Source of the DNA: Candidatus Staskawiczbacteria bacterium
GTDB taxonomy: Bacteria > Patescibacteriota > Minisyncoccia > Minisyncoccales > Staskawiczbacteraceae
DNA length: 64,000 nt
Reading direction: 5' to 3'
Assembly: GCA_023245195.1 (NCBI GenBank)
Contig: JAHFKU010000001.1
Location: forward strand, 27,662-91,661
The translations under genes were made by a program, and so were the position numbers. Positions 35,953 to 56,060 of this stretch are shown one piece after another (position 1 is the first letter of the stretch; each line of letters opens with the position of its first letter). Under the pieces are notes generated by a model. It was given only the letters and a program-made list of their open reading frames with translations, ran no database searches and was not told the DNA's origin.

Positions 35953-35984
35953 GAAATGCCGTGAAAGCATTTCGTGATTCAAAG
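35953..35984. repeat. MITE-A solo-end remnant immediately upstream of giant gene 1
   Basis: GAAATGCC joined directly to GCGAAAGCATTTCGTGATTCAAAG (the right-end sequence). Confidence 0.55.
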
Positions 35985-36008
35985 AGTGTATCATTTTTAA
36001 TTTACCAC

Positions 36009-39000
36009 ATGGCTTTTAAAAAAATTTCAACGTCAGTTATTTTTGCCGGAATATTTACTTGCACGGTGGTGTTTTTTTATTTGCCCGCAACGCCATTAAA
36101 AATCCAAGAAGCCAGAGCTTATGCCTGCTATGACGATGGAACCAATGACAGTAATTTTAACTGGACCGACACCAGTATTTGGGCTGGCTGCAATGGCAGT
36201 TATCCCGGCTCTCCCGCAAATGGAAATAGCGATACGGTAACTATTGGTAATACTAATCAAAGTGGTAACACATTTACGCTTAATACGAGTTCCATTACCA
36301 TAGCTAGTTTAATTATAGGTCCTATCAGCCACGGCGGTACACTAAAATTAAACGGAAATACACTTAATGTAAACGGTGCTGTAACCATAAAAACTGCTGC
36401 CAACTGCAGCTTCGCAAGTGATTTGCAGGTTGGAACAGGAACTTTAAATGCGACAGGTCTTATTACCATCGAAAATACTGCTGCCGATTCTAGTAATTGC
36501 GATGCAGATCTTGACGCAAGTACCGGAACCATTACCGCCAGCGGTGGCATTACCTTTTTATTTACCGCCGGAGCCAGTGCAGACTTAAGGCTCACCACCA
36601 CCGGAGCCACTACGATTAACCTTACCGGAGCTGTAACGGGCGCAGGGGATTTGTCTATTAATTCTGCGACCACGTTAGTTTCAACCGGTACCAGTAGTCT
36701 TGGACAAACTGCAACTTGGGGTAAATTATCTATCCCGAGTGGAACACTTACGATGGGGGCATTTGCTATATCGTTTGCTGGCACTACCAGTCTTACCGGC
36801 GGCACGCTCGCTGTCTCCAGCGCCACTGGAACCAAAACCTTCACCGGCGCCGTCACCTGCACCACCGGTAGTTTTGATTTGTCAGGGTTTGCTACCGTCA
36901 CCAGCTTTGCTGCCGGTATCACCGCCAACTGTACTACGTTTAATACGGGTACGGGCACTGCTGCTTTTTCAGCCGACCAATCTCTTGCTGGTTCGACCAA
37001 TATCACTTTCGGTGGTACTGTCACCCCCGCTTCAACTAAAACGATTACTAACAATAACACTGGAACGGTCACCGTTTCAGGAGCATTGACTCTGACGGGA
37101 AACTGGACGCAGGGCGCCAACTCAACCTTGAGCCTGGGCGCAACTCCGACGGGATCAGGCACTTTTGATACGAGTACGAATACGCCAAACACGGTAAAAT
37201 ATACCGCCACATCAACGCTGAAAGCTCCCAGTAGTTCTTACTACAATTTAACGATTACGGGAGGAACGGTAACAACGATAGCGGTAACGGTAACCAATAA
37301 TCTCGTAGTGAGCGGAGGCACTCTTTCTGGCACTTCTAATATTACCGTCAATGGCGGGGGAGTCACCGGTGATGGCACGATCACCATGAGCGCCCCCAGT
37401 GTCTTTTTAGTAGACGGCACTGGTAACTTCGGTGGTGCTACCGGCTGGACATTTTATGATTTAACCTTTGGAGATGGCAGTGGAGCTACGACAACCACGG
37501 CTACCGGAGCAGGAAGTATTACCGTCACCAACACTCAAACGGTTGCCGCTAATCAAACATTAAATGCTGGAAGTAAAACGTGGAATTTAACCGGTGTAGC
37601 AGTGAGCACTTCTTCTACCTATGTTCAAGGATGCGTCAATACTAATGCTAGTAATTCAGTCACTTGTACGATGAGTTCAAATATAACTGCGGGAAATTTA
37701 TTGGTGGTAAGCGGTTCAACTGCCGCAAATTTAACGGCTACTTTTTCCAGTTCTTCTGGAGTCAGTTGCACCTGGAATACGATTACCAGTGGCATAGCTA
37801 ATAGCGGTGTTCCTTTCAACTACGCTTTGGCTTATTGTCTTGTTCCTTCAACCGGAGCCGAAACAATCCAAATAAGTTGGAGCGGTAGCAGTTCTTTTAG
37901 CGATATTACGATTGCTGAATATAGTAATACGAGCGGCGGGTTTGCTCCCGGATTTGATAAATCGAGCAATGCGGTTGTTACGGGAGACTCCACTACCTGC
38001 AGTACCGGAACGACAGCTACGTTATCGCAGGCCAATGAATTGGTTATTGCCCTTTGCCATGGCTGGAACGGTAATGCTACCATTGGGACCGTATCGGGAT
38101 ATACCAAAAGAACCACTTCTGAAAGATCTAGTAACAATAATGGCTGGTATGACAAAGATGTAACCAGTACGACTGGTGTTTCGTGGTCCGCAACGATTGG
38201 GAGCGATAAAAGCATCGGCTTGATAGCTACGTTTATGAAATCCGGAATTACTGGAAGCCAATCATTAACCGTTAACGGCACTTTCACGGCCAGTACCTCA
38301 ACGTTCGCTTTTCAAAATGATATGGCTTTAACCATTCCCGCATTAACGTATTATAATTTAACCCTCTCTCCCACCATCACCGCCGCCCGCACCTACACCT
38401 TCGCCGGAGTCACCACCGTCAGCAACAACTTTGATATCAACCCCACTGCTTCTTCTGCCTTGGCTCTTACTACTAACCTTGGCGGAACGCTCACCGTCAC
38501 CGGTTCCACCACCATTGAGCGTACCACCTCTGCCACTTCCACCCTCGACACCCTTTCAGCTAGTAACTACGCTCTTTCATCAGGCTCTATTACGATTTCC
38601 ACCGGAGGAACCTTCACTTCCAATAATTCCGTTATCACCCTCACCGGCACCTCCGGCACGTTGTTTACCAAAACCGGAACTCTCACCGCCGTTGGCACCA
38701 CTTCTGAATGGGATGTCACTTCTGCAAGCGGAAGCCCCACCTTATTATCCGCCTCTACAACCCTCCACATCCTCAAGATCAACGCCGCCGCCACCGTCAT
38801 TAACCTCGGAGCGGCTTTCACCACCGACAATAATTCAGGCAACAAACTCTATGTAGCTTCCGGCGTCTTAAACCAGGAAAACCGCACCATCACCGCCGGA
38901 ACCAGCGGCACCTTGCAACTTGATTCCGGAGGCACCCTCTGCTTAGGGGGAACCACTTCTGCCACCACCGCCACCTGTGACTCGGGAGCCACCCAAACCA

Positions 39001-40364
39001 CTTCCTACACCCTTCCTTCATTTACCACTAACACGATTAATGCCTCTTCTACCGTTATCTATCTCTCAAATGCGACTACGACCGTAACCTCGTTAACCTA
39101 CGGCAACCTCAGCCTGATGCCAAAGATGACCACCGGAGTCGGAAGTCTTACTTACACCATGCCATCGAGCACCGTCAGCATCACCGGCAACTTTAACATC
39201 AAACCCACCGCTTCCAACGCGAGTCTGGCTCTCACCGTCAACTTGGCCACTTCCTCAAACACCGTCACCGGCACCACCACCATCCAACCCGATTCCACCA
39301 ATAGTCCCACGGCCAAGTTAGCTTCCACCTCTTCCAACTACAACCTAACCACCGGCAAGGTAGACATCGAATCCAACGGAACCTTGGATATTAATAATTC
39401 CACCCTCACCATTACCGGAACCTCGGGAACGTTATTCACGAGAGTGGGAACCTTCACCATCGGAGGTACCAGTACCACCACCTTTTCGGGCAATGGAGAC
39501 GCCACCTTAAATTCCGGATCGATAACATTCGATGCCATGACTAATTCTGGAACCGGAACCAAAACCCTCGGAGCCGCCATCACCACCGGGGGAGCGTTGA
39601 CGATTAGCGCGGGGACAATCGATGTTTCAGCCAGCGGCTGCTCTTCCGCTTCTTGTGCTGTTAATGTTGCGGGAAATTTTGCAAATTCCGGAACTTTTAC
39701 TGCCCGCACCGGTACAGTCACTTTTAATGGAACTAGTCAGACGATTTTTGGATCTACTTCTTTTTATAATTTTACCAAATCCGTCAGTTCTGCCGACACC
39801 TTAACTTTTACGGCCTCGTCTACCCAGACTATTGCCGGAACTCTTACGCTCCAGGGCGCTTCCGGTCAGCTGCTTTCATTGGTTTCAAGTTCGAGCCCGA
39901 CCCAATGGAATATTGATCCCCAAGGAACTCGGACCATCGGTTATCTAGATGTTAAAGATTCCAACAACACCAATGCTACGGCAATTACGACATCGGGGTT
40001 TACTATTACTGATTCCGGCCACAATACTAATTGGACATTTAGCACCTCGGGAACGACTCAACAATATGCCGGCGGACGAGTAATATATCTGCCAAAATCT
40101 GAAAAACCAAAAAATCCTATTTTGGTAAATCCTCAATATTTCTTCATTCGTTATTTGGGGCCCGGCGATAGGGGAGAGGATGTACTAATGCTTCAAACAT
40201 TACTTTTGCAACAAGGATTTTTTCCCGCCACTGTAATTATGAATGGTTATTTCGGATCGATAACCAAATTGTCAGTTAAAAAATTTCAGGCCAAATATGG
40301 TATTCGCCAAACGGGAAATGTCGGACCGCTCACCAAAAATGTTTTGAATACTTTAGAAAAATAG
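36009..40364 (+). CDS. Giant S/T/G-rich beta-helix surface protein 1 (~1450 aa) with C-terminal peptidoglycan-binding domain
   Basis: Signal anchor; N-terminal C..DDGTNDSNFNWTD..W..CNGSYPG..NGNSDTVTI module; T/S/G-rich beta-solenoid repeats; C-terminal PG_binding_1 (LMLQTLLLQQG...GYFGSITKLSVKKFQ). The track GTG at 35961 would translate a MITE remnant, so the ATG at 36009 is preferred. Confidence 0.7.
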   Translation: MAFKKISTSVIFAGIFTCTVVFFYLPATPLKIQEARAYACYDDGTNDSNFNWTDTSIWAGCNGSYPGSPANGNSDTVTIGNTNQSGNTFTLNTSSITIASLIIGPISHGGTLKLNGNTLNVNGAVTIKTAANCSFASDLQVGTGTLNATGLITIENTAADSSNCDADLDASTGTITASGGITFLFTAGASADLRLTTTGATTINLTGAVTGAGDLSINSATTLVSTGTSSLGQTATWGKLSIPSGTLTMGAFAISFAGTTSLTGGTLAVSSATGTKTFTGAVTCTTGSFDLSGFATVTSFAAGITANCTTFNTGTGTAAFSADQSLAGSTNITFGGTVTPASTKTITNNNTGTVTVSGALTLTGNWTQGANSTLSLGATPTGSGTFDTSTNTPNTVKYTATSTLKAPSSSYYNLTITGGTVTTIAVTVTNNLVVSGGTLSGTSNITVNGGGVTGDGTITMSAPSVFLVDGTGNFGGATGWTFYDLTFGDGSGATTTTATGAGSITVTNTQTVAANQTLNAGSKTWNLTGVAVSTSSTYVQGCVNTNASNSVTCTMSSNITAGNLLVVSGSTAANLTATFSSSSGVSCTWNTITSGIANSGVPFNYALAYCLVPSTGAETIQISWSGSSSFSDITIAEYSNTSGGFAPGFDKSSNAVVTGDSTTCSTGTTATLSQANELVIALCHGWNGNATIGTVSGYTKRTTSERSSNNNGWYDKDVTSTTGVSWSATIGSDKSIGLIATFMKSGITGSQSLTVNGTFTASTSTFAFQNDMALTIPALTYYNLTLSPTITAARTYTFAGVTTVSNNFDINPTASSALALTTNLGGTLTVTGSTTIERTTSATSTLDTLSASNYALSSGSITISTGGTFTSNNSVITLTGTSGTLFTKTGTLTAVGTTSEWDVTSASGSPTLLSASTTLHILKINAAATVINLGAAFTTDNNSGNKLYVASGVLNQENRTITAGTSGTLQLDSGGTLCLGGTTSATTATCDSGATQTTSYTLPSFTTNTINASSTVIYLSNATTTVTSLTYGNLSLMPKMTTGVGSLTYTMPSSTVSITGNFNIKPTASNASLALTVNLATSSNTVTGTTTIQPDSTNSPTAKLASTSSNYNLTTGKVDIESNGTLDINNSTLTITGTSGTLFTRVGTFTIGGTSTTTFSGNGDATLNSGSITFDAMTNSGTGTKTLGAAITTGGALTISAGTIDVSASGCSSASCAVNVAGNFANSGTFTARTGTVTFNGTSQTIFGSTSFYNFTKSVSSADTLTFTASSTQTIAGTLTLQGASGQLLSLVSSSSPTQWNIDPQGTRTIGYLDVKDSNNTNATAITTSGFTITDSGHNTNWTFSTSGTTQQYAGGRVIYLPKSEKPKNPILVNPQYFFIRYLGPGDRGEDVLMLQTLLLQQGFFPATVIMNGYFGSITKLSVKKFQAKYGIRQTGNVGPLTKNVLNTLEK

Positions 40365-40433
40365 TTTTCCACAATTTTCATCTTGACTCGTTTTTTTGAA
40401 AAGTTATAATGAAAGTAGCTCTGAAGTTCCGAA

Positions 40434-40600
40434 AGGCTCACCAATTAAGTATTGTTCTACTGCACATTAAATCTTTTGGTTAAAAATTTCCAAAAGCTCG
40501 GCGGCTTATCGATTCTCACTGATAAGCTTTCTCGCTTTTGATAATTTTCAACTTCAAAACTTTTAATTTTCGTCACGAAAAATACTTAATTGGTGAGCCT
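40434..40600. mobile_element. MITE-B copy (~167 bp) between giant gene 1 and the RAYT
   Basis: Perfect 20-bp TIRs AGGCTCACCAATTAAGTATT / AATACTTAATTGGTGAGCCT; core ~85% identical to the 33129 copy. Confidence 0.65.
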
Positions 40601-40705
40601 CATAATATTCTATATTAATTTTCTTAAGGGAGTTCAATATCTGTTCCGGCTGTGGCCGCGACTTGAGAACACCCACTTATATTTTTCATAGAAATATAAT
40701 AAGGG

Positions 40706-40768
40706 CATCAGAGCAACAAAAAGGTCGCATCCGTGCGATTTTTTTGTTGCTCTGATGCGATGTTTAAT
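40706..40768. repeat. Large perfect hairpin (17-bp stem) upstream of the RAYT; candidate IS left-end structure
   Basis: CATCAGAGCAACAAAAA-GGTCGCATCCGTGCGATT-TTTTTGTTGCTCTGATG. Confidence 0.5.
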
Positions 40769-40789
40769 GATAAAATACCTATATAATAT

Positions 40790-40812
40790 CTTGCGAGGTC
40801 ATACCTCGCAAG
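40790..40812. repeat. REP hairpin copy 1 (CTTGCGAGGTCATACCTCGCAAG), 14 bp upstream of the RAYT ATG
   Basis: Perfect 10-bp stem with ATG/CAT in the loop, which is shared by copies 2 and 3. Confidence 0.7.
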
Positions 40813-40825
40813 ATTTATAAAATTT

Positions 40826-41578
40826 ATGTCTTCAAAAAGACCACAATTAGTTAACGATGAATTTTATCATGTTGTCCTAAGAACTGTGGGTGATAGCGTT
40901 GTTTTCGAAAAAGAAGATGATTTTTATCGTGGCATTTTTTCTATTTATGAATTTAATAATGTCAACCCTGTAAATATATGGTTGAGAAGACAGCAACGTA
41001 AAAAGGAAAAGGCAATGGAAGATCTTGTAAAATCAGATTCTGTAAATTTGCGAGGTATGACCTCGCAATACTCTGAACAACTAGACAGAAGAGATAAGAT
41101 GGTGGAGATTTTATGTTTTTCTTTTATGCCGAATCACTTGCATCTTTTACTGCGCCAATTAAAAGATGATGGAATTACTCATTTTATGCAAAAAGTTGGT
41201 ACTGGCTATGCAAGATATTTTAATCAAAAATACAATCGCAAGGGGCATCTTTTCAGCCGTTTTCGAGCAGTTCATATTAAAACTGATGAACAGTTGAAAA
41301 ATACATTTACCTATATCCACACTAATTTAATCGCTTTAATCGAGCCAGGGTTTAAGGAAAAAGGATTAAAAAATCCCAAGAAGGTAATAGAATTTTTAGA
41401 AAATAGTAAACGCCACAGTTATCTTGATTATCTTAATAAAAAGAATTTTCCTTCGGTCACAGAAAGAGAATTTCTTCTAAACATATTAGGAGGTCCGGAT
41501 GGTTGCCGGGAAGAAGTAAATAATTGGGTAAATCATAAAAAAGAGTTGAAAGATTTTAGTAATGTTTTTTTAGAATAA
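40826..41578 (+). CDS. IS200/IS605-family HUH tyrosine transposase, REP-associated (RAYT-like)
   Basis: N-terminal YHVVLRT, HUH motif NHLHLLL, and catalytic-Tyr region TYIHTNLIALIEPG. Identical REP hairpins lie upstream, inside and downstream. Confidence 0.8.
   Translation: MSSKRPQLVNDEFYHVVLRTVGDSVVFEKEDDFYRGIFSIYEFNNVNPVNIWLRRQQRKKEKAMEDLVKSDSVNLRGMTSQYSEQLDRRDKMVEILCFSFMPNHLHLLLRQLKDDGITHFMQKVGTGYARYFNQKYNRKGHLFSRFRAVHIKTDEQLKNTFTYIHTNLIALIEPGFKEKGLKNPKKVIEFLENSKRHSYLDYLNKKNFPSVTEREFLLNILGGPDGCREEVNNWVNHKKELKDFSNVFLE
41048..41068. repeat. REP hairpin copy 2, inside the RAYT coding sequence
   Basis: TTGCGAGGTATGACCTCGCAA, translated in frame as NLRGMTSQY. Confidence 0.7.
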
Positions 41579-41592
41579 CTATTCTAAATTGC

Positions 41593-41635
41593 AAACAAAA
41601 ACTTTGCGAGGTATGACCTCGCAAAGTTTTTGTTT
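41593..41635. repeat. REP hairpin copy 3 with extended 20-bp stem, downstream of the RAYT
   Basis: AAACAAAAACTTTGCGAGGTATGACCTCGCAAAGTTTTTGTTT. Confidence 0.7.
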
Positions 41636-41886
41636 CTTCTGGGAAGTTATCCACAGTTTTACGGTGGTTTTTAGTATATTTCACATCATTAAAATATGGT
41701 AAAATGAACGAATAATTTTATATTTTTTCCAGCTTTTTTAAATGCCTCCCAAAAAACGCAAGCATAATATTATAACCATAAAAATAAAAGATAAAAATAC
41801 GGTTGCAAAAGCTCCGGCAAGTCTTTATGTGCGCATTGTTTCTCCTGCGCCGGCGCATAAATTATGGTTGCTTAATCTTTTTAGTT

Positions 41887-41957
41887 CTCAATTGCAAAAC
41901 TTCCGTTTTAAAAGTTACTTTTTTGGTCTTTTTCCCACAAAAGATTTTCGTGATTCA
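41887..41957. repeat. Internally deleted MITE-A remnant in the 5' leader of giant gene 2
   Basis: Matches the left 45 bp (…CCGTTTTAAAAGTTACTTTT…GGTCTTTTTC) and right end (AAAGATTTTCGTGATTCAG) of the 26831 copy. Confidence 0.6.
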
Positions 41958-41975
41958 GTGTTTTTTAAAGTTTTT

Positions 41976-47900: not shown

Positions 47901-50900
47901 GGCGCCCAGCCGACGGTTACCACGTTGACGCAGGGATCAAGTGCTCAACTTACGTTTAGCGGCACGGTTCCAACGATTACTACTCTAACCGCAACAGCTT
48001 CGTCAAATACCGTTAGCTACACTTCCACGAGTTCCCAAACTACCATTGCCGCCACCTATGTCAACTTTGTAAAATCTGGCTCCGGCGGTACTGCCACGTT
48101 GGGAGGTGATACCGTTTTAAACGGTACTTTAACAATATCTTCGGGTAGCCTTCAGCTTTCTACTGCTAGTTTTACTGCCACCGGAGCATCGTCTATTACC
48201 GGAACTTTAAACGACAACAGTGCCACGGGAACTAACATTTTCATTGGCGCCGTCACGATTAACAGTGGCGGAGTCTGGACCGAAACTAACAATCCTGCTT
48301 TTGAATTTAGGGGAGGACTGACTAATGATAGTTCTTCTGGTTTTACTTCCGGCACCGGAACCTACACCTTCAGTACCAACGCCCAAACGATATCTGGTTC
48401 CCAATCTTTCACGATTACTAATTTGACTAACAGTGTTACCAGTTCCACCGGACTTACCTTTTCTGGTGCCCAGCCGACCGTGACCACATTAACCCAGGGA
48501 AGTAGCGCGTACCTTACTTTTTCTGGTAACACGGTTCCAACTATTACTACGCTAACAGCCACGGCTAGCGGGAATACGGTTGAATATAGTGCTGCCTCCC
48601 AAGCCATTAAAGTTGTTTCGTATGTTAATTTGACGCTAAGCGGCAGCGGTACTGCCACCGGTGCGGTTACTACCGTTACCGGAGCTTTAAATATTTCGGG
48701 AACCGTGTCTTGGTCCGCCGATGCTATTACCAGCACCATGACTAGTGTTACCGTAAATACCACTGGGACTTTAACCCTGGGAGCGAACATGGCTACCAGC
48801 GGTGCCCTTACCGTAACGAAAGGAACTTTTAGCGCATCGGGTAGCAACTATACGGTTACCGCCGCTTCGGTATCTTCAGCAAATACCAACACCCGCACGA
48901 TTACGATGGGGTCGGGCCTTTGGACATTAAATGGAACGGGAACTGTTTGGGATACTTCAACAACGACCAATCTTACCTTAACTTCTTCGGGAACGATAAA
49001 AATAACCGATACCAGCAGTACCGCAAATACTTTTTCCGGAGGAGGAGTGACATCCTTTAATAATATTTATTTTTCGCGCGGGTCAAGTACGGCTTCAAAT
49101 ACGATCGCAGGAAGCAACACCTTTGCTGATTTTAAAGATGATGGAAGCGCCGCTCATTCCATATTATTTACCACGGGCACTACTCAAACCGTAACCACGT
49201 TCACGGTTTCCGGTACTTCCGGCAATTTGATTACTATTAACAGCACCACTACCGGAACCCACACTCTTTCCAAAGCATCGGGAACGGTTTTTTCTGATTA
49301 CTTAAGTGTTCAACATTCAATTGCTACTGGCGGCGCATCTTGGTATGCAGGGTCACATAGCACCGATAATAATTCCGTAACAACTGCCGGAAGCGGTTGG
49401 ATATTTGCTAATGCCCCTTGCACCTCTTTGGCGACTGGTAATTGGAATACCGCCGGCACTTGGGATTGCGGGCATGTACCAACGACGTCAGATCCAGTCA
49501 TCGTTGCAGCAAGCCACGTGGTTACCATGGATGTAAATTCGGCTTCTTTGGGTACCATTACGATTAATGGCACGCTAAATACCAGCGATGGTACGAGCCG
49601 ATCGTTGAGCGGAACCACGTTGGCCATTGGTGCTGTTGGAACGCTTACTGCCAACGCCTCTGTCATTACTCTTTCTGGTACTTCTGGGACACTTTTTGCC
49701 ATTACATCCGGCGGTACTTTTACCAATGGTACGTCGGAAGTGGTGATAACCAGTGCCGCCGATCTTACCCTTAATTCAACCGCTACTTCTTTTTACAAAC
49801 TAACCTTCAATAATTCTGGAAATACCACAACATTGGGCGCGGCAACTACGGTAGATAATAATTTGACGATCACGGCCGGAACTTTGCAATTAAGTACTTT
49901 GGGCCTAACTGTTACCGGCACCACCTCCCTCACCGGCACCTTAAACGACAACTCCGCCACCGGAACAAATCTCTTTGTCGGCGCCGTCACTATTAATAGC
50001 GGCGGAGTCTGGACCGAAACCAACAACCCCGCTTTTGAATTCAGGGGAGGATTAACCGAAAATAGTTCTTCTGGATTTACTTCAGGAACTGGAACTTATA
50101 CTTTTAGCACTAACGCTCAAACGATTTCGGGATCCCAATCTTTTACGATTACCAACCTTACTAACAGTGTTACCAGCTCAACCGGATTAACATTTTCTGG
50201 TGCTCAACCGACGGTTACCACGTTGACGCAAGGATCAAGTGCTCAACTTACGTTTTCTGGAAGTATGCCGACGATCACCACCTTAACAGCTACCGCCAGT
50301 GGTAATACCGTCAGTTACACTTCTACCGGATCACAAACGGTTAAAGGGACGACGTATGTCAACTTAACCATTGATAAATCTGGCCAGACAGCAACCTTGG
50401 GCGGTGATACCACGGCTAATAATAATGTAACTATCACGGCTGGCACCTTAGATGCCGATAATACCAATAATTATAATCTTACGGTTGGTGGCACGTGGTC
50501 AAATTCCGGCACTTTCACTCCACGACAGGGAACATTTACTCTTACTGGCACTTCCACATTTTCTGATACCACTTCATTTTATAATTTTGCCATTAATGGT
50601 TCCGGAAAAACGGTCACCCTTGGCGGAGCTTTAACTGCTTCAAATAACTTAACTATCACCGCCGGCACCTTAGATGTTTCAGCTTCTGGTTGTTCTTCAG
50701 CTTCTTGTGCAGTTTCTGTTGGCGGCACGTGGTCAAATAGCGGTACCTTTACTGCTCGAACAGGAACCGTTACCCTCACCGGAACTTCCACATTTTCTGA
50801 TACTACTTCGTTTTATAATCTGACAATCAACGGAAGCGGAAAAACGGTCACGCTTGGAGGAGCTTTAACTGCTTCAAATAATCTAACCATCACCGCTGGA

Positions 50901-53900
50901 ATCCTGGATGTTTCAGCTTCTGGTTGTTCTTCCGCCTCTTGTGCAGTTTCTGTTGGCGGTAACTGGTCTAATTCCGGAACCTTCACCGCAAGATCCGGCA
51001 CCGTTACGTTAACTTCAACTTCAAGCAGTGCTACCTTAGATTCGGGTGGCAGCAGCTTTTACAATCTCACCCAAAATGGAACGGGTGGTACTTACACTCT
51101 GCAAGGTGGTCTTGGAACGAGCAACAATTTAACTATCACCGCCGGAACGCTGGATACCAAATCAACATTTAATTACGGAGTTTCTGTTGGCGGCACGTGG
51201 TCGCGAAGCGGTACTTTTACCGTAAGAAATGCTAATTTCACCCTTACCGGAACTTCTACGTTTTCTGACACGATGAGTTTTTATAATTTCATTATTAATG
51301 CTAGTGGCAATACGGTTACCCTCGGTGCGGCTTTAACCGCCACCAACAACTTGACTATCACTGCTGGAACCCTGGATGTCTCGGCTTCTGGCTGTTCTTC
51401 CGCTTCTTGCGCAGTTTCTGTTGGAGGAAATTGGTCAAACTCCGGAACATTTACTAAGCGCACGGGAACGGTTACCTTAACTTCCACTTCTTCGGGCGCC
51501 ACCCTAACTTCCGGCGGCAGTAGTTTTTACAACTTAACCCAAAATGGAACCGGTGGTACTTACACTCTGCAAGATGCTTTATCGGCAACTAATAACTTAA
51601 CGATTACCGCCGGAACGCTAGATACCAAAGCCAGTTCTAACTACGGCGTCACGGTTGGTGGCACCTGGTCTAATTCTGGTACCTTTACGCCACAGCAAGG
51701 AACGGTCACCTTAACCGGAACTTCTACGTTTTCTGATACCACTTCTTTTTACAATATTACTATTAATGCCAGCGGCAATACCGTCACGCTTGGCGGAGCT
51801 TTAACTGCCACCAACAACTTAACCATCACCGCCGGAACTCTGGATGCTTCCGCTAGTGGTTGTTCGTCGGCTTCATGCGCTATTTCAGTTGGAGCTAACT
51901 TTTCAAACTCTGGAACCTTTACGGCAAGAACCGGTACGGTCACCATTACTTCCACTTCTTCAGGAGCCACACTAACTTCTGGCGGCAGCAGTTTTTACAA
52001 CTTAACCCAAAATGGTTCTGGTGGAACTTATACCCTGCAAGATGCTTTAGCTACTACTAATAACTTAACCATCACAAATGGAACTTTAGATGTATCGGCT
52101 TCTAACTGTTCTTCTGCTTCTTGTTCCGTCAGTGTTGGAGGCAACTTCTCAAATGCTGGTACCTTTACCGCCCGAAGCGGAACCGTAACATTAACTTCAA
52201 CGTCAGGAAGCGCTACGCTAAGTCCCGGAGGAACTTCATTTTATAACCTCACTCAAAATGGAAGTGGTGGAACTTATACTTTACAGGGAGGCTTAGGAGT
52301 TACCAATAATTTAACCATCACTGCCGGAACATTGGATACCAAAGCCAGCTCAAACTATGGTGTTACCGTTGGCGGCACCTGGTCTCGATCAGGAACCTTT
52401 ACGGTAAGGCAATCTAACTTTACTCTTACCGGCAACAATACGTTTGCCGACACGATGAGTTTTTACAATTTCATTATTAATGGCTCGGGTAAAACCACAA
52501 CTCTTGGTGCTGCCTTAACTGCTTCAAATAACTTAACCATCACCGCTGGCACCCTGGATGTTTCAGCCAGTGGTTGTTCCTCGGCTTCGTGCTCGGTCAC
52601 GGTTGCTGGAAACTTCTCCAATTCAGGAACCTTTACCGCCCGAACTGGCACGGTTACACTTAATGGCACGAGCCAGAAAGTATTTGGTTCCACCACCTTT
52701 TATAATTTCACAAAAAATATTGCCTCGGCTTCCGCTGACACCTTAATGTTTGAAAACACCAAAACCCAAACCGGCGCTTCCGGCGGAACCTTCAGCTTAG
52801 TGGGCGCTTCCGGAAAAGTGCTTACCCTCCGATCTATGGATTCTTCTGGAACTCAGTCAGATGGTACAGAGTGGAATCTTACGGTAAACGGCAGCCAAAA
52901 TGTTACCTATGTTGACGTTAAAGATTCCAATGCCTCCGGCGGAACGGCTATCGCTCAAACCAATTCCACGAATTCGGGCAACAATACTAACTGGACATTT
53001 AACACTGCCCCGACATTTTCTTCTATTTCTAATACCTCTGGTTATATTAAATCCGGAGGCACCGTAACTTTTACTACCACCGCCAGCGACCCTGATTCTG
53101 GCGATACTGTCACTCTGTACGTCTGCAAGGCCAACGATTTTACTGGCAGTGCTTGCGGATCGGGGGGCACGTGGTGTTCTTCTTCAGCTTCCACCACCAA
53201 TCCTTCGTGTAGTTACACGGTCCAATCTTCTGATACTGACGGCTCGCACACTTATTATGGAAATATTATAGATAATAATAGTTCTCAATCTTCGTCTAAT
53301 CCAAGATCAGGTACGTTTACCACTGATTCTACCGCTCCCACGGTTGATGCGGGAACTGATCAGTCAAAATCTGCCAGCTTCACCCAAGACGCTACGGTTT
53401 CTGATGCTACAAGCGGTATCGCTAGCTACCAGTGGAGCAAGCAATCGGGAGGCGGGACAATTACCTTTGGAACCGATACGGCCGAAGATACCACTATTTC
53501 TGCCAGTGCTGCCGGCACTTATGTAATTAGGCTGACCGCAACTGATAACGCTGGCAATTCCAATTACGACGAATTTACTCTTACCTGGACAGTTACATCT
53601 TCAAGCAGTGGCGGCAGTGGTGGCGGAGGCGGATCTCATTTTAGCGCTTTAGACAAGCCTCAAGGAAACTTTTCTCTTACTATTAATAATGGGAGCAGCA
53701 TAACTGCCAGTCAGGATGTTACCTTAAATATGATCGGGGTAGGCAGTGATGTAAAAAGCATGTCAGTTTCCAATGATCAGAATTTTGCCGGCGCGATTCA
53801 AGAAGCTTATCAAACAACAAAATCTTGGAGGCTTACTGATGGAGAGGGTCTAAAAACGGTCTATGTTAAGTTTTTCACTGCCTATGGGGTGGCTTCTGAT

Positions 53901-55331
53901 GTGATTACCTCAACCATCAATTATACGACCCAGCCTCAAAATCCTATTAGCCAAATTATTGACCAGATTGGGCAAGGTGTTACGGAAATTAAAGATAATA
54001 TTGGTAAGATATTTACTCTAAAACCGCCGGCTCCGCCAGCTTTGCCGCCAGTAGAAGAAACCGTAAAGAAGGCCGCGCCTCTTTCATTAAAAGGCAAATG
54101 GAATCTTTTGGCTTTTGATTCAATCTGGGAATTCCTTTTCGCTCCTTTGCCAACCGAAACAAAATCGTTGGCCAAAAAATTACCCGAAGTTAATGAATTG
54201 TTCAAGCAAACTGGAATTGTAACGGTTAATTCAACGGTTCAAAAATTACAAGGGGTTGAATTGACGGTTCCGGGATTAAATAAAAGAACGATTGTGCAAA
54301 AAATCGGTGGCGGCGGAACTATTCCCAAAGCAGAGCCTATTGAAGGTGGTAATTTAACGGCTCCAAAATTACAAGGCGGGGGATTAGCAAAAACGGAATT
54401 AGCGCCAGTTCAATTTGCGTTGCCAAAAAATATTCCCTTGGCCCAAATCGGGGCGAATATCAAAAAGGTTATTCCAACTGAAATTGTCTTTGCTAGAACC
54501 GCTAACGAGCTGATTGATTTTAATATTATTTTGTCTATCAATGACCAGGGAAAACTGCAACAACGAATTAATACCATTTCTGGCCAAGAAATTAAGCTGG
54601 CCGTAAAACCCGATGGGCCGGTCAGCAGTGTAAAAGGATATTTGGTTTTAAAATCAAAACAGCCAGCGCCAACCGCCTTTGAATTACCACGCAACATTTT
54701 CTCGGCATCATTGCTTTTTTCAAATCCTGATTTAGTGGCTTCTTCACAGGGCGCGCCAAAAGTTGAAACTCAATTATTATTAGATGAATTTGATTATCAA
54801 GACGAAGACAAAGATGGAATTTGGACTGCCAACATTAAAGCTCCAGCAGTTGATGGCGAATACGAAGTCACCACGATTATGAAGTACAAAGATATCAAGG
54901 TTGGAGATAAAGAAATAAGATTGGTCGTGGTGGTGGACCCGGAAGGCTATGTTTACAGCAGTGTGATGGGCGGGGAATTGCGTATTAATGGAGCGATCGT
55001 TTCTTTGTACTGGCTAAATCCCGAAAGCAAACAATACGAAATTTGGCCGGCGGCCGATTTCCAACAGGAAAATCCCCAAATTACCAACAAAACCGGTAAG
55101 TACGCATTTTTGGTGCCCGAGGGATTGTACTATATAGAAGTGGCGGCGCCCAACTATGCTACGTTCCAGTCTGAAGTTTTGACCGTCAAGCAAGGTAACG
55201 GCATCCACATGAATATTGAATTGAAAAGCAAGAATTGGTGGCTGGCCTATTTTGACTGGAAAACTATCTTATTGGCTTTGATATTTTTATTATTGTGTTA
55301 TTTAATCATTCGCGGTAAAATTAGAAAATAA
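41976..55331 (+). CDS. Giant S/T/G-rich beta-helix surface protein 2 (~4450 aa) with C-terminal TM anchor; paralog of protein 1
   Basis: Signal anchor; acidic P-rich linker; a module with the same N-terminal motif as protein 1 at ~aa 610; long near-identical tandem repeat arrays; Ig/PKD-like domains near the C-terminus; C-terminal TM helix. The track start at 41742 reads through a hairpin leader and a MITE-A remnant, so the in-frame GTG at 41976 is preferred. Confidence 0.7.
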   Translation: MAEFWHLKNTARTNIKSIALVSSLFIFSLTLTTGNSFISTYQIHQRDYRTIKDVVIKQLSPAVINQPTQYTVLVKQSLITKGKKGQYLVKLPKGATNISVKTILADQAKQILSKETPKITSLFSNLKNPLSFTKPSHSVSVKPKNGQFLLASLDESGLPETPPALEPVAVESLPVELPPAAEHAADPVKTQEESAVSESAPIQEEPVTSDVRVIKTKDATFVDVSSQAPPAPESVTENNSEASDAPVVPDAPAANDANQDSTNQDIADSPEIVSGEVPASDKSSADKPADKENKENSGQNNPDNKLKKEEYIKIDYQIQAAVITEQKTNHGKNVTVSAPNEDPEHPLTNVLAFTAIPEIFNIGQEDNIQIKWTNNQDQPMPFTAHDTNGNGKLDYLEWVVPHLSEQEFNIIYISKAFLLDQDKNVLEDIYPIVKEQDGTFQAVTQGQYVRVTFIKNLTQNNDITLYARPTDPNQPVTIKVYSALTDQLITTFDVIDHEDTYRVLLTNLEQDTDVFDLKITNANADIDFIVDPGNACATNTTGTVNWSAAGTWTSCGGGYPGQSGNSDTVTIANAAVAVTGDVTVTVDTITFTGGNASASINISNGITITATGAATINAPTSASITKEIAVGGGALSVGGLFTLASGSSSTRISKLSVGTGTATLSAGLTCTGSAETFTVASGGTFNFTGTMSAGCLTVTINSGSTTNFSGTVQLDGAYTFGIVTVNSGTTTMGAVAITFAGTTTLGGGTLAVSSATGTKTFTGAVTCTTGSFDLSAAAAVTSFAAGITANCTTFNTGSGTATLSATQSLAGSTNITFGGALTVSAGTTTNNNSGTVLSTGVLTLTGNWAQGANSTLSMNSTNSGSGTLDASTNTPNTVKYNATATLKAPTSSYHNLTITAGTVTSVAVTISNDLVVSGGTFSGTASITVNGGDVTGDGTITMTGGTFLLDGTGNFGGATAWTFNNLTFGDGSGTTTTTATGAGGITVTGATTVAANQTLDAGSKTWNLTGSVSTITFRAEAQDINTGTNCNPGEPAGTVANDLLVGMVWVGSAAGTTPSMPTGWTSLYSGISSNNDWRYNVGYIVRGSSAAATTFTNTNHYRECFIIGFSGVSTTGTIDAQSSSGTLSNASAHNPDPPAVTAVSSAAMAIALGWNEAGNAGPGTTNWTAPTNYTMRSTDPSNGNGVAIASRLLTSSGSENPSAFGNVGSGTTDYWDGATFTLTPATLTPLTVNGTFTASTSTVAFQNDMALTIPALTYYNLTLTPTITAARTYTFAGATTVSNNLDINPTASSALALTANLGGTTTVTGSITIEGTTSGTSKLDTVSGSNYSLTAASINITSAGTFTPQASTVTLTGTSGTLFTKAGTFTVATSTFVVTSSSGQPSLLSAATTFHILKINTTGGSTVINANQTITIDDASGAKLWIAGGVLNDSGYGISTSASTTNTLQIDSGTTLCLGGASTNTSTTCDSNATSTTSRTLPTFQTYTLDSASTVIYLSNAATTVTSKTYGNLSLMPKMTTGVGSLTYTMPSSTVSIAGNFNIKPTASNASLALTVNLATASNTVTGTTTIQPDSTNSPTAKLASTSSNYNLTTGKVDIESNGTLDINNSTLTVTGTSGTLFTRVGTFTIGGTSTTTFSGNGDATLNSGTITFDAMTSSGTGTKTLGNDITTGGALTISAGTLQLSTLSLTANSTTSLTGTLNDNSATGTNLFVGAVTINSGGVWTETNNPAFEFRGGLTENSSSGFTSGTGTYTFSTNAQTISGSQSFTITNLTNSVTSSTGLTFSGAQPTVTTLTQGSSAQLTFSGTVPTITTLTATASSNTVSYTSTSSQTTVAATYVNFIKSGAGGTATLGGNTTLNGTLTISSGTLQLSTANLSVTGASSITGTLNDNSATGTNTFTGAVTINSGGVWTETNNPGFTFQGGLTNDSSSGFTSGTGTYTFDTNAQTISGSQSFTITNLTNNVTSSTGLTFSGAQPTVTTLTQGSSAQLTFSGTVPTITTLTATASSNTVSYTSTSSQTTIAATYVNFVKSGSGGTATLGGDTVLNGTLTISSGSLQLSTASFTATGASSITGTLNDNSATGTNIFIGAVTINSGGVWTETNNPAFEFRGGLTNDSSSGFTSGTGTYTFSTNAQTISGSQSFTITNLTNSVTSSTGLTFSGAQPTVTTLTQGSSAYLTFSGNTVPTITTLTATASGNTVEYSAASQAIKVVSYVNLTLSGSGTATGAVTTVTGALNISGTVSWSADAITSTMTSVTVNTTGTLTLGANMATSGALTVTKGTFSASGSNYTVTAASVSSANTNTRTITMGSGLWTLNGTGTVWDTSTTTNLTLTSSGTIKITDTSSTANTFSGGGVTSFNNIYFSRGSSTASNTIAGSNTFADFKDDGSAAHSILFTTGTTQTVTTFTVSGTSGNLITINSTTTGTHTLSKASGTVFSDYLSVQHSIATGGASWYAGSHSTDNNSVTTAGSGWIFANAPCTSLATGNWNTAGTWDCGHVPTTSDPVIVAASHVVTMDVNSASLGTITINGTLNTSDGTSRSLSGTTLAIGAVGTLTANASVITLSGTSGTLFAITSGGTFTNGTSEVVITSAADLTLNSTATSFYKLTFNNSGNTTTLGAATTVDNNLTITAGTLQLSTLGLTVTGTTSLTGTLNDNSATGTNLFVGAVTINSGGVWTETNNPAFEFRGGLTENSSSGFTSGTGTYTFSTNAQTISGSQSFTITNLTNSVTSSTGLTFSGAQPTVTTLTQGSSAQLTFSGSMPTITTLTATASGNTVSYTSTGSQTVKGTTYVNLTIDKSGQTATLGGDTTANNNVTITAGTLDADNTNNYNLTVGGTWSNSGTFTPRQGTFTLTGTSTFSDTTSFYNFAINGSGKTVTLGGALTASNNLTITAGTLDVSASGCSSASCAVSVGGTWSNSGTFTARTGTVTLTGTSTFSDTTSFYNLTINGSGKTVTLGGALTASNNLTITAGILDVSASGCSSASCAVSVGGNWSNSGTFTARSGTVTLTSTSSSATLDSGGSSFYNLTQNGTGGTYTLQGGLGTSNNLTITAGTLDTKSTFNYGVSVGGTWSRSGTFTVRNANFTLTGTSTFSDTMSFYNFIINASGNTVTLGAALTATNNLTITAGTLDVSASGCSSASCAVSVGGNWSNSGTFTKRTGTVTLTSTSSGATLTSGGSSFYNLTQNGTGGTYTLQDALSATNNLTITAGTLDTKASSNYGVTVGGTWSNSGTFTPQQGTVTLTGTSTFSDTTSFYNITINASGNTVTLGGALTATNNLTITAGTLDASASGCSSASCAISVGANFSNSGTFTARTGTVTITSTSSGATLTSGGSSFYNLTQNGSGGTYTLQDALATTNNLTITNGTLDVSASNCSSASCSVSVGGNFSNAGTFTARSGTVTLTSTSGSATLSPGGTSFYNLTQNGSGGTYTLQGGLGVTNNLTITAGTLDTKASSNYGVTVGGTWSRSGTFTVRQSNFTLTGNNTFADTMSFYNFIINGSGKTTTLGAALTASNNLTITAGTLDVSASGCSSASCSVTVAGNFSNSGTFTARTGTVTLNGTSQKVFGSTTFYNFTKNIASASADTLMFENTKTQTGASGGTFSLVGASGKVLTLRSMDSSGTQSDGTEWNLTVNGSQNVTYVDVKDSNASGGTAIAQTNSTNSGNNTNWTFNTAPTFSSISNTSGYIKSGGTVTFTTTASDPDSGDTVTLYVCKANDFTGSACGSGGTWCSSSASTTNPSCSYTVQSSDTDGSHTYYGNIIDNNSSQSSSNPRSGTFTTDSTAPTVDAGTDQSKSASFTQDATVSDATSGIASYQWSKQSGGGTITFGTDTAEDTTISASAAGTYVIRLTATDNAGNSNYDEFTLTWTVTSSSSGGSGGGGGSHFSALDKPQGNFSLTINNGSSITASQDVTLNMIGVGSDVKSMSVSNDQNFAGAIQEAYQTTKSWRLTDGEGLKTVYVKFFTAYGVASDVITSTINYTTQPQNPISQIIDQIGQGVTEIKDNIGKIFTLKPPAPPALPPVEETVKKAAPLSLKGKWNLLAFDSIWEFLFAPLPTETKSLAKKLPEVNELFKQTGIVTVNSTVQKLQGVELTVPGLNKRTIVQKIGGGGTIPKAEPIEGGNLTAPKLQGGGLAKTELAPVQFALPKNIPLAQIGANIKKVIPTEIVFARTANELIDFNIILSINDQGKLQQRINTISGQEIKLAVKPDGPVSSVKGYLVLKSKQPAPTAFELPRNIFSASLLFSNPDLVASSQGAPKVETQLLLDEFDYQDEDKDGIWTANIKAPAVDGEYEVTTIMKYKDIKVGDKEIRLVVVVDPEGYVYSSVMGGELRINGAIVSLYWLNPESKQYEIWPAADFQQENPQITNKTGKYAFLVPEGLYYIEVAAPNYATFQSEVLTVKQGNGIHMNIELKSKNWWLAYFDWKTILLALIFLLLCYLIIRGKIRK
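47040..48560 (+). repeat. Intragenic tandem repeat: about 2.7 units of ~570 bp in giant gene 2
   Basis: Repeated protein unit TLNDNSATGTN.F.GAVTINSGGVWTETNNP.FEFRGGLTENSSSGFTSGTGTYTF.TNAQTISGSQSFTITNLTN.VTSSTGLTFSGAQPTVTTLTQGSSAQLTFSG; >90% nt identity between units. Confidence 0.8.
49920..50345 (+). repeat. Fourth dispersed copy of the 570-bp unit, ~300 bp identical to 47041-47340
   Basis: The run CCTCACCGGCAC...GACGCAAGGATCAAGTGC is nucleotide-identical in both places. Confidence 0.8.
50400..52760 (+). repeat. Intragenic tandem array of alternating ~222/~246-bp units (~468-bp dimer, about 5 copies) in giant gene 2
   Basis: The LTITAGTLD anchor recurs at 50428, 50650, 50883, 51130, 51351, 51598, 51819, 52066, 52311 and 52536. 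Units encode ...DVSASGCSSASCAVSVGGNWSNSGTFTARTGTVTLT... alternating with ...DTKASSNYGVTVGGTWS.SGTFT..QG..TLTG... Confidence 0.8.
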
Positions 55332-55884: not shown

Positions 55885-56060
55885 CACTTTAAATCCCGAA
55901 ATGCCTTCGAGGTATTTTTCCAGAATTTGGAGATAGAAATTTGATAGAATTTTCAGGCTTACGCAACGCGTCCGGCTGAAAATTATAGCAAATTTATAGC
56001 CCAAATTCTGGTAAAAGACCCGAAGAGCGGTTTAAAACGGGCATTTCGGGATTTAAAGTG
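55885..56060. mobile_element. MITE-A copy (~176 bp) with perfect 21-bp TIRs
   Basis: CACTTTAAATCCCGAAATGCC ... GGCATTTCGGGATTTAAAGTG. Confidence 0.8.

Follow-up and report, generated by a model that had tools for sequence, protein, structure and literature searches.

The window, i.e., the whole 64-kb stretch of DNA that was analysed, carries two very large open reading frames on the plus strand, gene 1 (35961-40364) and gene 2 (41742-55331), the translations of which are surface proteins of 1467 and 4529 aa. The initial annotation had described them as two giant paralogous surface proteins, and the comparison bears this out: the genes are colinear and in direct orientation with a register offset of about 7.4 kb, and residues 67-1368 of the first protein align with residues 623-1950 of the second at 55% amino acid identity. 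Three parts of gene 2 have no counterpart in gene 1: the N-terminal module of 620 aa, the repeat arrays in the centre and the anchor region at the C-terminus.

The gene 1 product appears to be a secreted protein rich in Thr (20%), Ser (13%) and Gly (11%). An alternative start, the ATG at 36009, would yield 1451 aa. A signal-peptide-like segment (36009-36119) is followed by a cap module, read directly as CYDDGTN..NW.D.S.W..C.G.YPG..NGNSDTVTI (36126-36245), which is the opening of the repeat scaffold. The protein ends in a peptidoglycan-binding domain (40170-40346; PF01471 PG_binding_1, E = 1.2e-11, 45 bits with a cut-off of 23), and thus is expected to be wall-bound. The sequence of gene 1 is identical across three independent assemblies over the parts that each covers.

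The gene 2 product begins with a basic tail and a transmembrane (TM) segment (42018-42074), then continues through a conserved module of ~600 aa, the scaffold, repeat arrays and PKD/Ig-like domains to a TM anchor at the C-terminus (55257-55328), where RGKIRK follows a hydrophobic helix. Given this helix, it is expected to be membrane-anchored, and the two different C-terminal ends ascribed to the proteins earlier are both confirmed. The more likely start of gene 2 is 41742 and not 41976, as its first 60 residues can be aligned with those of the gene 2 ortholog at locus L036; the later start was considered since 41879-41937 resembles a dispersed repeat, and was ruled out by this alignment. The cap module (C..GT..W....W..C..YPG..GNSDTVTI) lies at 43581-43688, and its motif also occurs in gene 1 and L036, so the common cap module of the initial annotation is present in both genes. 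Pfam matches are to G8 (49458-49802), where a cap-like motif begins the match, and to PKD (53376-53585). The C-terminal 556 aa are 44% identical to a giant protein at locus L004, and the TM tail is conserved in both L036 and L004. Directly downstream of the giant gene is a conserved partner, a small single-TM protein of 120 aa (55419-55781, plus strand), which is 77% identical to a 118-aa protein of L036 and 46% identical to a 132-aa protein of L004 at the same position.

Two kinds of repeats occupy the centre of gene 2. Modules of 564 bp (47058-50411) comprise three tandem copies and a fourth at 49920; copies 1 and 4 are 99% identical over 300 nt (47068-47367 and 49930-50229), which indicates homogenisation inside gene 2. 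They are followed by an array of 234/468-bp repeats (LDVSASGCSSASC... units; 50421-52660), the final unit of which is homologous to gene 1 39597-39804. L001 was assembled independently from the same strain, and its contig breaks off at window position 47237, in the first 564-bp copy; we suspect that the repeat caused this break. The full gene 2 product has no exact database record, and no contig on record carries all of it.

Judging by their sequences, both giant proteins share one Thr/Ser/Gly-rich repeat scaffold. Its fold is probably beta-helical; no structure or PDB sequence match was found that supports a beta-helix. With regard to autotransporters and PATR proteins, neither giant has a Pfam match to PF12951 or to a translocator barrel, and PF12951 (PATR repeats) was seen in some distant giant homologs only. 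Relatives of the giant genes number in the dozens, at 1100-2500 aa, and the few with a named source come from Paceibacterota and Microgenomates MAGs as well as from bacteria other than Patescibacteria (Syntrophales, Bacteroidota, Limisphaerales). The suggestion that such a locus is unusual for a reduced genome was therefore overstated.

The space between the genes holds the MITE copy and the long hairpin reported in the initial annotation. The former is a palindromic MITE-like element of 167 bp with perfect 20-bp terminal inverted repeats (40434-40600), the core of which has a second copy at 33153-33270 (40458-40512 and 33153-33207 are 93% identical, in an alignment of ~120 nt). The latter (40705-40758) has a perfect outer stem of 18 bp, extended to ~25 pairs (-26.6 kcal/mol, z = -9.5). 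Rfam matched no family between 33 and 57 kb, the MITE-like element included. Downstream of the hairpin is a gene for a Y1 HUH tyrosine-transposase-like protein, discussed below.

Probable exchange between the paralogs

The aligned parts of the two genes fall into blocks on either side of a divergent insert slot. Block A, the 5' flank of the slot (36738-37594), pairs with gene 2 44154-45004 (blastn 71% over 858 nt; amino acid identity 0.67-0.93, dN 0.16, dS 1.8), and a second block (38263-39565 and 45661-46969) has 75% nucleotide identity. The 80-100% nucleotide identity given earlier for the blocks was thus too high, and 91-93% is reached in two tracts only. Tract 1 (38263-38460, paired with 45661-45858) is directly 3' of the insert slot and has 93% nucleotide identity, a dS of 0.20 and a dN of 0.035. 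Tract 2 (39090-39520, paired with 46494-46924) has 91% nucleotide identity, a dS of 0.31 and a dN of 0.030. It includes the run of ~90 bp that was noted as common to both genes, which measures 88 bp (39095-39182 and 46499-46586); no run longer than 51 arose in 10,000 permutations.

A dN/dS comparison of the shared blocks had been proposed as a check, and it found that divergence is far from uniform. NG86 dS, at 0.20 and 0.31 for the tracts, rises to 1.5-2.3 or is undefined (saturated) elsewhere, and the synonymous divergence of the tracts is 5-9 times below that of neighbouring blocks of equal protein conservation. Third-position identity is 0.8-0.9 in the tracts and 0.17-0.4 in adjacent blocks with 70-90% amino acid identity. 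Similarly, the fraction of identical codons among codons with conserved amino acids is 0.87 and 0.74 in the tracts compared with 0.33-0.44 outside (Fisher p = 1e-18). In a three-way comparison with the L036 ortholog, the likeness of gene 1 to gene 2 within the tracts far exceeds the likeness of either to L036: in tract 2, genes 1 and 2 are 95-100% identical in amino acids and L036 is 37-46% identical to either. In the other blocks L036 is nearer to gene 1 than to gene 2. Given this mosaic divergence, the sequence exchange between the paralogs that had been put forward earlier is well founded, and the low-dS tracts support patchy gene conversion between gene 1 and gene 2.

Further evidence comes from L001, which over 12,061 bp departs from the window at two positions only, 46562 and 46578. 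These lie in the 88-bp run, and the window has the gene 1 allele at both; these are two linked SNPs in one other assembly, and could be an assembly or consensus artefact. An indel in L001, suggested by offset NDK/gene 1 coordinates in the gene table, was ruled out by the alignment, which is ungapped at 99.98%. The three assemblies have a single fixed structure over the stretches they cover, with no chimeric or alternative junctions, and all three end short of most of gene 2.

It is possible, if unlikely, that mixed reads of the paralogs produced the tracts during metagenome assembly, or if not the tracts then the 88-bp run and the two SNPs. Both genes are repetitive, the contig of L001 stops in a gene 2 repeat and no recorded contig has the full product, and the two SNPs are exactly where gene 1 reads could mis-map. 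However, three independent assemblies, made from different samples, show the same bases throughout their shared stretches, and the tracts are 91-93% rather than 100% identical with mostly synonymous differences, a pattern that chimeric assembly would not yield. Mixed reads could account for the two-SNP difference at most.

It is also quite unlikely that there was no exchange at all and that the patches of high identity reflect purifying selection or constraint at the nucleotide level, for instance from an embedded RNA or from a gene on the antisense strand. The tracts do encode the most conserved segments of the proteins (amino acid identity 0.92-1.0), and each gene has a minus-strand ORF over tract 2 (39338-39721 in gene 1, 46742-47164 in gene 2). 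Antisense ORFs, however, occur all along both genes and are an effect of composition, and Rfam found no matching family. Selection on the protein would not explain why neighbouring blocks with 80-87% amino acid identity have a third-position identity of just 0.17-0.25, nor why dS falls from above 1.5 to 0.2-0.3 in the tracts alone. The tract 2 segment is not universally constrained either, given the low amino acid identity of L036 in this segment.

In the favoured reading, gene conversion, homologous recombination would copy short tracts between the genes non-reciprocally. The tracts of ~200 and 430 bp would be much younger than the saturated remainder; their remaining divergence of 7-9% shows that the main events were not very recent. 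A micro-tract of 17-88 bp seems to differ between samples, and the same process would homogenise the repeat modules within gene 2. We infer a RecA-type mechanism, and likewise the direction of conversion. It is conceivable that further paralogs exist elsewhere in the genome and were the true donors of the tracts.

The insert domain

Between the conserved blocks each giant protein has a divergent block of ~220 aa, which is predicted to be a phage minor-tail-like beta domain. In gene 1 it spans 37602-38264 (aa 548-768, subtype 1) and is modelled by AF2 with an MSA as an all-beta domain (pLDDT 85, pTM 0.86); the MSA was required, as the single-sequence model had a pLDDT of 40. A Foldseek search of BFVD with this model gave 57 matches, including minor tail proteins, with TM scores of 0.73-0.81 and E about 1e-10. 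In gene 2 the domain spans 45006-45662 (aa 1089-1307) and is assigned to the same fold family as subtype 2 by a profile HMM (E = 2e-69). BLAST found no significant match between the two inserts. No relative of the domain was found in Pfam, PHROG or PDB.

The inserts of gene 1, gene 2 and the L036 ortholog represent three subtypes with a mutual identity of just 20-28%. Each is nearest to a different subtype of stand-alone proteins (44-52% identity), which are mostly phage-encoded: the gene 1 insert is 52% identical to P0210, and the gene 2 insert is 47-48% identical to P0213 and P0218. P0218 and P0217 are located in phage structural modules. There is exactly one copy of the domain in each giant gene and none elsewhere in the window, nor was it found in 87 other giant homologs that were examined.

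We suspect that the slot acquired its domains by replacement or exchange with genes of phages, in which the conserved flanks may have been used; this cassette replacement is deduced from three genes. The insert is likely the ligand- or host-binding part, and the giant proteins may function in adhesion or host binding. The domain has the predicted fold of many proteins of tailed phages, some of which are annotated as minor tail proteins, and distinct subtypes at the same position in a conserved scaffold recall the mosaicism of tail fibres and the shuffling of domains in phage receptor-binding and minor tail proteins. Unlike phage tail proteins, it is embedded in giant surface proteins of a cell rather than in a virion protein. 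We found no solved structure and no demonstrated ligand for the insert family. A diversity-generating retroelement target was considered and ruled out: the direct-repeat search found no template/variable repeat pair, and no direct repeat involves 37602-38264 or 45006-45662. The initial annotation viewed the locus as one of surface-protein diversification. The detected tracts, however, homogenise the scaffold instead of diversifying it, and the diversity lies in the insert domain, outside the tracts.

The Y1 gene and its hairpins

The Y1 gene (40826-41578, plus strand) encodes 250 aa and matches PF01797 at 31.3 bits, above the cut-off of 23. It scores 34.7 bits with NF047646 (REP_Tyr_transpos), under the cut-off of 80. 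The motifs NHxH (N103-H104-x-H106) and YxHxN (Y163-x-H165-x-N167) are invariant in 18 family members. There are more than 1600 relatives, the best 120 of which, as listed, are 59-75% identical to the protein. It is a member of a conserved Patescibacteria family, and the assignment to Patescibacteria is based on the source names of such homologs and of those of the giant genes. The family profile had no match at E <= 1 among solved RAYT structures, and the sole sequence match in PDB is a weak one to ISDra2 TnpA (E = 0.024). A single copy of the gene is present in the 64-kb window, and the exact protein is known from this context alone.

A palindrome, TGCGAGGTnnnACCTCGCA, is found on both sides of the gene. 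The upstream cognate hairpin (40788-40815) has a 12-bp stem and the loop CAT, and the downstream one (41593-41636) has a 20-bp stem and the loop ATG, followed by a T-rich stretch. A third copy, overlooked by the initial annotation, is inside the ORF (41048-41069), where it encodes LRGMTSQ in the variable loop of the family. These are the only three copies in 64 kb. The RAYT with REP hairpins reported earlier is thus a Y1_Tnp gene with a palindrome on both sides, whereas a REP nature of the palindrome is not supported by the 64 kb, where it is present nowhere else.

The arrangement recurs across the family. Among 80 related loci, 40 have the same 7-nt stem core upstream and downstream of the Y1 gene, 23 of these also within the ORF, and there are 'far' copies at 6 of the 80. 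Relatives have the in-ORF hairpin at the same position, with a stem that matches their own flanking hairpins. Around five relatives (9-27 kb) there was no dispersal, all copies being at the Y1 gene; in some Saccharibacteria MAGs the palindrome is dispersed. The Patescibacteria Y1 family has cognate, covarying hairpins upstream, inside and downstream of the ORF.

The Y1 protein resembles RAYTs (Nunvar 2010, PMC2817692; Bertels 2017, PMC5581495) and the TnpA of IS200/IS605 as a Y1 HUH enzyme with NHxH and YxHxN motifs. Like a RAYT gene, it has perfect flanking cognate hairpins that covary with the gene across genomes; its single copy in the window and its housekeeping-like conservation with synteny kept would be in keeping with a RAYT gene as well. 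Unlike RAYTs, it stays under the NCBIfam RAYT cut-off, no dispersal of its hairpin was seen in the window or around the relatives, and the family is longer than RAYTs and TnpA, at about 235-260 aa with a conserved C-terminal extension. A search of these RAYT papers (PMC2817692, PMC5581495) for a few terms gave no mention of an in-ORF cognate hairpin. The gene is bounded by subterminal hairpins like an IS200/IS605 transposase gene, but there are no multiple near-identical copies and no sign of recent transposition, with a single copy in 64 kb.

Six or more diverged genomes have Y1 directly upstream of a gene 2 homolog, with Y1 proteins that are 65-75% identical, and so the gene did not insert between the paralogs. 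In L036 and L004 the Y1-giant adjacency is present and gene 1 is absent from that position. Family members also occur in other genomic contexts. Downstream sequence of 1.5 kb or more is available for 43 family loci, and five of these (L039, L040, L079, L080 and L086) have a long open frame of giant size there; the frames of L039, L040 and L079, from close relatives, match gene 2, unlike those of L080 and L086. On this count, an association with giant genes was ruled out as a general rule of the Y1 family.

One could imagine the locus as a host-range module of an episymbiotic Patescibacteria cell, in which the flanks are recombination arms that swap phage-derived receptor-binding domains into and out of two giant adhesins, one wall-anchored and one membrane-anchored, and the conserved Y1 protein, with its hairpins, is a domesticated single-strand nickase that would control or promote expression or recombination of the giant gene beside it, although we regard this as decidedly improbable. 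As first suggested, the giant genes would rearrange or exchange sequence with the help of the Y1 (RAYT/IS200-like) enzyme and its hairpins; this is highly improbable. The gene with its cognate hairpins does sit between the paralogs, and since six or more related genomes have it beside a giant gene, a functional link is conceivable. However, this adjacency is ancestral synteny with gene 2 homologs that exists also where gene 1 is missing; no copy of the palindrome (up to two mismatches) is found in either giant gene or at the tract borders; few family loci have a giant-size downstream frame; and repeats inside gene 2, far from Y1, exchange as well. The Y1 gene is a long-standing syntenic neighbour, and nothing points to a role in exchange. 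We consider it probable that the explanation as a whole holds, i.e., paralogous giants, conversion of tracts, an insert slot with a phage-type domain, and Y1 as an uninvolved neighbour.

Comparison with known systems and significance

In Helicobacter pylori, the paralogous adhesin genes babA/babB and sabA/sabB undergo gene conversion. The locus resembles that system in having two full-length surface paralogs in one genome, each with a divergent middle, presumed to bind ligands, between conserved flanks, and in the probable copying of short non-reciprocal tracts with mosaic identity as the signature. It differs in that the genes are in tandem, encode 1467 and 4529 aa and belong to a Patescibacteria-like organism, and in that the tracts are in the scaffold and not in the variable domain. 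Chimeric alleles of the binding domain were not observed in the three assemblies. The anchors are a peptidoglycan-binding domain and a TM helix, in contrast to the outer-membrane barrels of bab/sab.

A programmed antigenic variation system of the pilS/pilE, vls or MgPar type, with gene 1 as silent cassette or donor and gene 2 as recipient, is very unlikely and was ruled out. In its favour, a shorter paralog adjoins a longer one in direct orientation and a variable domain lies between conserved flanks. Against it, gene 1 is no promoterless partial cassette, being a complete ORF that has a signal peptide and a wall anchor of its own; no exchange is seen in the variable domains; 64 kb hold no extra cassettes of the domain; and the structure is fixed in three assemblies.

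By description rather than by sequence, the genes also resemble Giant1-5 of Apilactobacillus kunkeei (PMC12863079) and the giants of Omnitrophota (10.1101/2023.11.21.568195), which are adjacent multi-kb surface genes with a notable share of a small genome, a repeat-rich solenoid-type architecture and recombination-shaped diversity. For A. kunkeei, the study reports no recent within-genome gene conversion between paralogs (PMC12863079), whereas conversion between paralogs is the main signal here.

The points newly added by this analysis are the insert-domain subtypes, one per giant gene, and the cognate Y1 hairpins across Patescibacteria. The Y1 family, with its in-ORF cognate hairpin, is widespread and conserved, and could extend what is known of domesticated HUH transposases. 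The lifestyle generally assumed for Patescibacteria is attachment to host cells, and little has been established about how they recognise these hosts. The locus indicates that homologous exchange between paralogs operates in their reduced genomes. A pair of giant proteins with a shared scaffold, sequence exchange and different phage-tail-like domains is a concrete candidate for the part that recognises the host, and the insert slot suggests a way in which this part may be replaced.

Two giant paralogs and their neighbours

Two paralogous giant surface-protein genes lie on the same strand: gene 1 (35961-40364; 1467 aa) and gene 2 (41742-55331; 4529 aa). Both proteins are rich in Thr (~20%), Ser (12-13%) and Gly (11%), and BLASTP aligns gene 1 aa 67-1368 colinearly with gene 2 aa 623-1950 at 55% identity. 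The cap motif that the initial annotation saw in both genes is present, at 36126-36245 and 43581-43688. The 80-100% nucleotide identity given there for the shared blocks was too high, as we measured 71% for 36738-37594 versus 44154-45004 and 75% for 38263-39565 versus 45661-46969. The two ends were described correctly: gene 1 closes with a peptidoglycan-binding domain (Pfam PG_binding_1, E = 1e-11) and gene 2 with a membrane anchor, a hydrophobic helix followed by RGKIRK. In gene 2, Pfam also detects PKD and, weakly, G8. Ahead of the peptidoglycan-binding domain, 39597-39804 of gene 1 is homologous to the unit that closes gene 2's repeat array (52533-52746). Given the paralog alignment and this tail match, gene 1 looks like a shortened gene 2, lacking the 620-aa N-terminal module, the central repeats and the anchor region. 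G+C is 0.42-0.51 with negative GC skew in both genes (36001-54000); elsewhere in the window G+C is 0.33-0.41 and the skew is positive. Codon use rich in Thr, Gly and Ala probably explains this shift.

A Y1 transposase-like gene lies between the paralogs. Related Y1 genes sit directly 5' of gene 2 homologs in loci L036, L079, L040 and L039, where the N-terminal module is common to the giant proteins, and in locus L004, where the C-terminal 556 aa are. L036 and L004 also have the same small membrane protein 3' of the giant gene, and gene 1 is absent from the corresponding place in both. Because of this synteny, the order Y1, giant gene, small membrane protein appears to be ancestral, and gene 1 a lineage-specific addition upstream. 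The small protein (~120 aa, one transmembrane segment) is always 3' of the giant gene (55419-55781 in the window; L036 17362-17718, 77%; L004 13826-14224, 46%) and is a conserved partner of it.

Evidence for sequence exchange between the paralogs

In a codon-aware alignment, divergence between gene 1 and gene 2 is sharply mosaic. Third-position identity is 0.8-0.9 within 38283-38460 and 39081-39530, and falls to 0.17-0.4 in adjoining blocks despite 70-90% protein identity. Conserved amino acids use identical codons in 87% and 74% of cases in the two tracts, compared with 33-44% outside them (Fisher p = 1e-18). Nei-Gojobori dS is 0.20 in tract 1 (38263-38460) and 0.31 in tract 2 (39090-39520), versus 1.5-2.3 or saturation elsewhere. 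The corresponding dN values are 0.03 (tracts), 0.16-0.34 (remaining scaffold blocks) and 1.0 (insert). The long identical run noted earlier measures 88 bp (39095-39182 = 46499-46586), above the maximum of 51 in 10,000 permutations. Uneven protein constraint is ruled out as the cause, since the pattern sits at silent sites.

The positional gene 2 ortholog in L036, a related genome, served as outgroup, chosen because its 5' end, 3' end and downstream gene match. Amino-acid identity between gene 1 and gene 2 is 95-100% in tract 2, where L036 shares 37-46% with each of them; in other parts of the alignment L036 is nearer gene 1 (0.78-0.92) than gene 2 (0.50-0.70). The three genes are mosaics of one another. 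Repeat modules within gene 2 show homogenisation too, with 99% identity between 47068-47367 and 49930-50229 and 77-80% among sister copies. The L036 ortholog itself is broken by a frameshift or stop in the cap module at ~10055 (..WDNCNK* / SSYPGSPTNGNSDTV); the gene may be a pseudogene, or the break may reflect an error in sequencing or programmed slippage.

The same locus, with unchanged structure, is present on three contigs from other samples, at 99.98-100% identity to the window. Over 12,061 bp compared with another assembly, the sole differences are at 46562 and 46578, both in gene 2's 88-bp run, and at both sites the window allele is that of gene 1 while the other assembly's differs. A linked pair of changes, 16 bp from each other and both toward the paralog, matches the trace expected of a 17-88-bp conversion tract; a consensus artefact is also possible, this being a single comparison between assemblies. 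No large chimeras were seen in the three contigs, all of which end within or before the gene 2 repeats.

The initial annotation is partly confirmed: exchange between the paralogs is supported, but its suggestion of transposase- or REP-assisted rearrangement is not. The Y1 synteny seems to predate gene 1, no copy of the Y1-associated hairpin lies within either giant gene, and 38 of 43 other family loci have ordinary genes as Y1 neighbours.

The insert slot

Between block A (36738-37594) and tract 1, gene 1 carries an insert of 221 aa (37602-38264), and gene 2 one of 219 aa (45006-45662) between the counterparts of these blocks. The two are ~20-25% identical, without a significant BLAST match to each other, and the L036 ortholog carries one of a third kind. 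The 3' edge of the slot coincides exactly with the start of tract 1. Searching with a profile gave 19 relatives, each a stand-alone protein (156-290 aa), that group in subtypes, and the inserts have different best relatives (gene 1, P0210 at 52%; gene 2, P0213/P0218 at 47-48%; L036, P0227 at 44%). Each of the three giants has exactly one copy of the domain; none was found in 87 other giant homologs or elsewhere in the window.

Modelled by AlphaFold with the relatives' alignment, the insert is confidently all-beta (pLDDT 85, pTM 0.86), and 57 phage proteins of predicted structure resemble the model (TM 0.73-0.81; E as low as 3e-10), among them several with a minor tail protein annotation. P0218 and P0217 lie in phage structural modules, with an SU10-type portal, capsid and adaptor beside GH16, and with a head-decoration protein and major capsid protein; P0215 is flanked by proteins of 1482 and 1191 aa near a phage lysozyme. 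Of the stand-alone homologs within phage structural modules of L118 (7150-8684) and L119 (3556-12304), one adjoins a GH16 glycoside hydrolase and one lies between two >1100-aa proteins, neighbours that hint at glycan recognition on tails. The simplest reading is a conserved scaffold slot filled by different members of a phage-associated, putative binding-domain family, in which we infer both the binding function and the replacement of inserts.

The Y1 gene, its hairpins and nearby repeats

The Y1 ORF (40826-41578; 250 aa) scores 31 bits against Pfam Y1_Tnp (cut-off 23) and 34.7 bits against the NCBIfam RAYT (REP-associated tyrosine transposase) equivalog, under its cut-off of 80. It belongs to a large, strongly conserved family of >1600 matches, the best 120 of which are 59-75% identical to it; those with a named source are from MAGs of Patescibacteria, Staskawiczbacteria and Doudnabacteria. 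NHxH and YxHxN are invariant, and a variable loop surrounds residues 65-90.

Three copies of the palindrome TGCGAGGTnnnACCTCGCA exist in the 64 kb, where none is expected by chance: 35 nt 5' of the ORF, 15 nt 3' of it, and within it at 41048-41069, where it encodes LRGMTSQ. Five related loci have perfect hairpins 5' and/or 3' of the Y1 gene and within the ORF, with a stem constant within a genome and different between genomes (GCGAGGT in the window, GGGACGT in L004, L007 and L008, GCGGGGGT in L036). In 80 further metagenomic loci, hairpins with one common 7-nt core occupy positions around -30 to -80, +185 to +220 and +710 to +760; counting perfect stems only, and with many contigs ending early, 23 loci have all three, 17 the upstream and downstream copies, 34 another partial set and six none. 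Among these loci there are at least 20 different stem sequences, and additional distant copies are rare. Because stems match within a genome, positions recur and distant copies are rare, the hairpin is tied to the Y1 gene and co-evolves with it. The in-ORF copy falls near codon 65-75, inside the variable loop (window 40788-41636; L004, L007, L008, L036, L038-L117), and some Y1 ORFs hold two inverted copies (L007, P0052).

In its behaviour the hairpin resembles the end of an IS200 element or a REP flanking a RAYT, but the DNA available here shows no dispersal of it; the Y1 gene likewise resembles RAYT/IS200 transposases, but departs from RAYTs on two points testable here. Several Saccharibacteria MAGs have dispersed copies of the window's palindrome TTGCGAGGTnnnACCTCGCAA, at times as tandem pairs (L011, L013, L014, L019, L023, L027 and L030; seven stretches on five contigs of CAZPKQ01), and distant Y1 genes (30-35% identity) adjoin three of these copies, so a REP-like life style exists in the wider group. 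A limited keyword check of the RAYT and Candidate Phyla Radiation literature found no description of this Y1 family or of an in-ORF cognate hairpin.

Other repeats lie between and around the genes. Between them, perfect terminal inverted repeats of 20 bp bound a 167-bp element (40434-40600), which shares a ~120-bp core with 33153-33270; both cores have many internal palindromes, the terminal inverted repeats that close them differ from one core to the other, and neither matches Rfam. Such elements may be MITEs or structured RNAs. A hairpin of ~25 pairs, also between the genes, lies at 40705-40758. A family with 76-88% identity is dispersed in both orientations (26231-26322, 26826-27003, 34274-34444, 55915-56059, 41879-41937), including a 59-nt fragment in the 5' coding part of gene 2 (41879-41937) and a copy ~600 nt 3' of it. 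AT-rich AATTTGAAATTT-type blocks form inverted pairs (33801-33980, 35160-35353, 25143-25273, 56463-56610, 57909-58053) and flank short ORFs directly 5' of gene 1; 33928-33969 and 35173-35214, 1203 nt apart, are 100% complementary over 42 nt.

By the criteria tested here, the giant-gene pair is not a silent-cassette system, a DGR target or an autotransporter. Its behaviour is that of bab/sab-type gene conversion between paralogous adhesin genes, seen here in giant genes that lie in tandem in a small genome. By homolog search, these lineages commonly have giant surface-protein genes, which occur in other small genomes as well (PMC12863079); recent conversion between paralogs was not found in that study. 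Two finds were unplanned: the slot for a phage-tail-like domain, and a widespread Y1 family with its arrangement of three hairpins.
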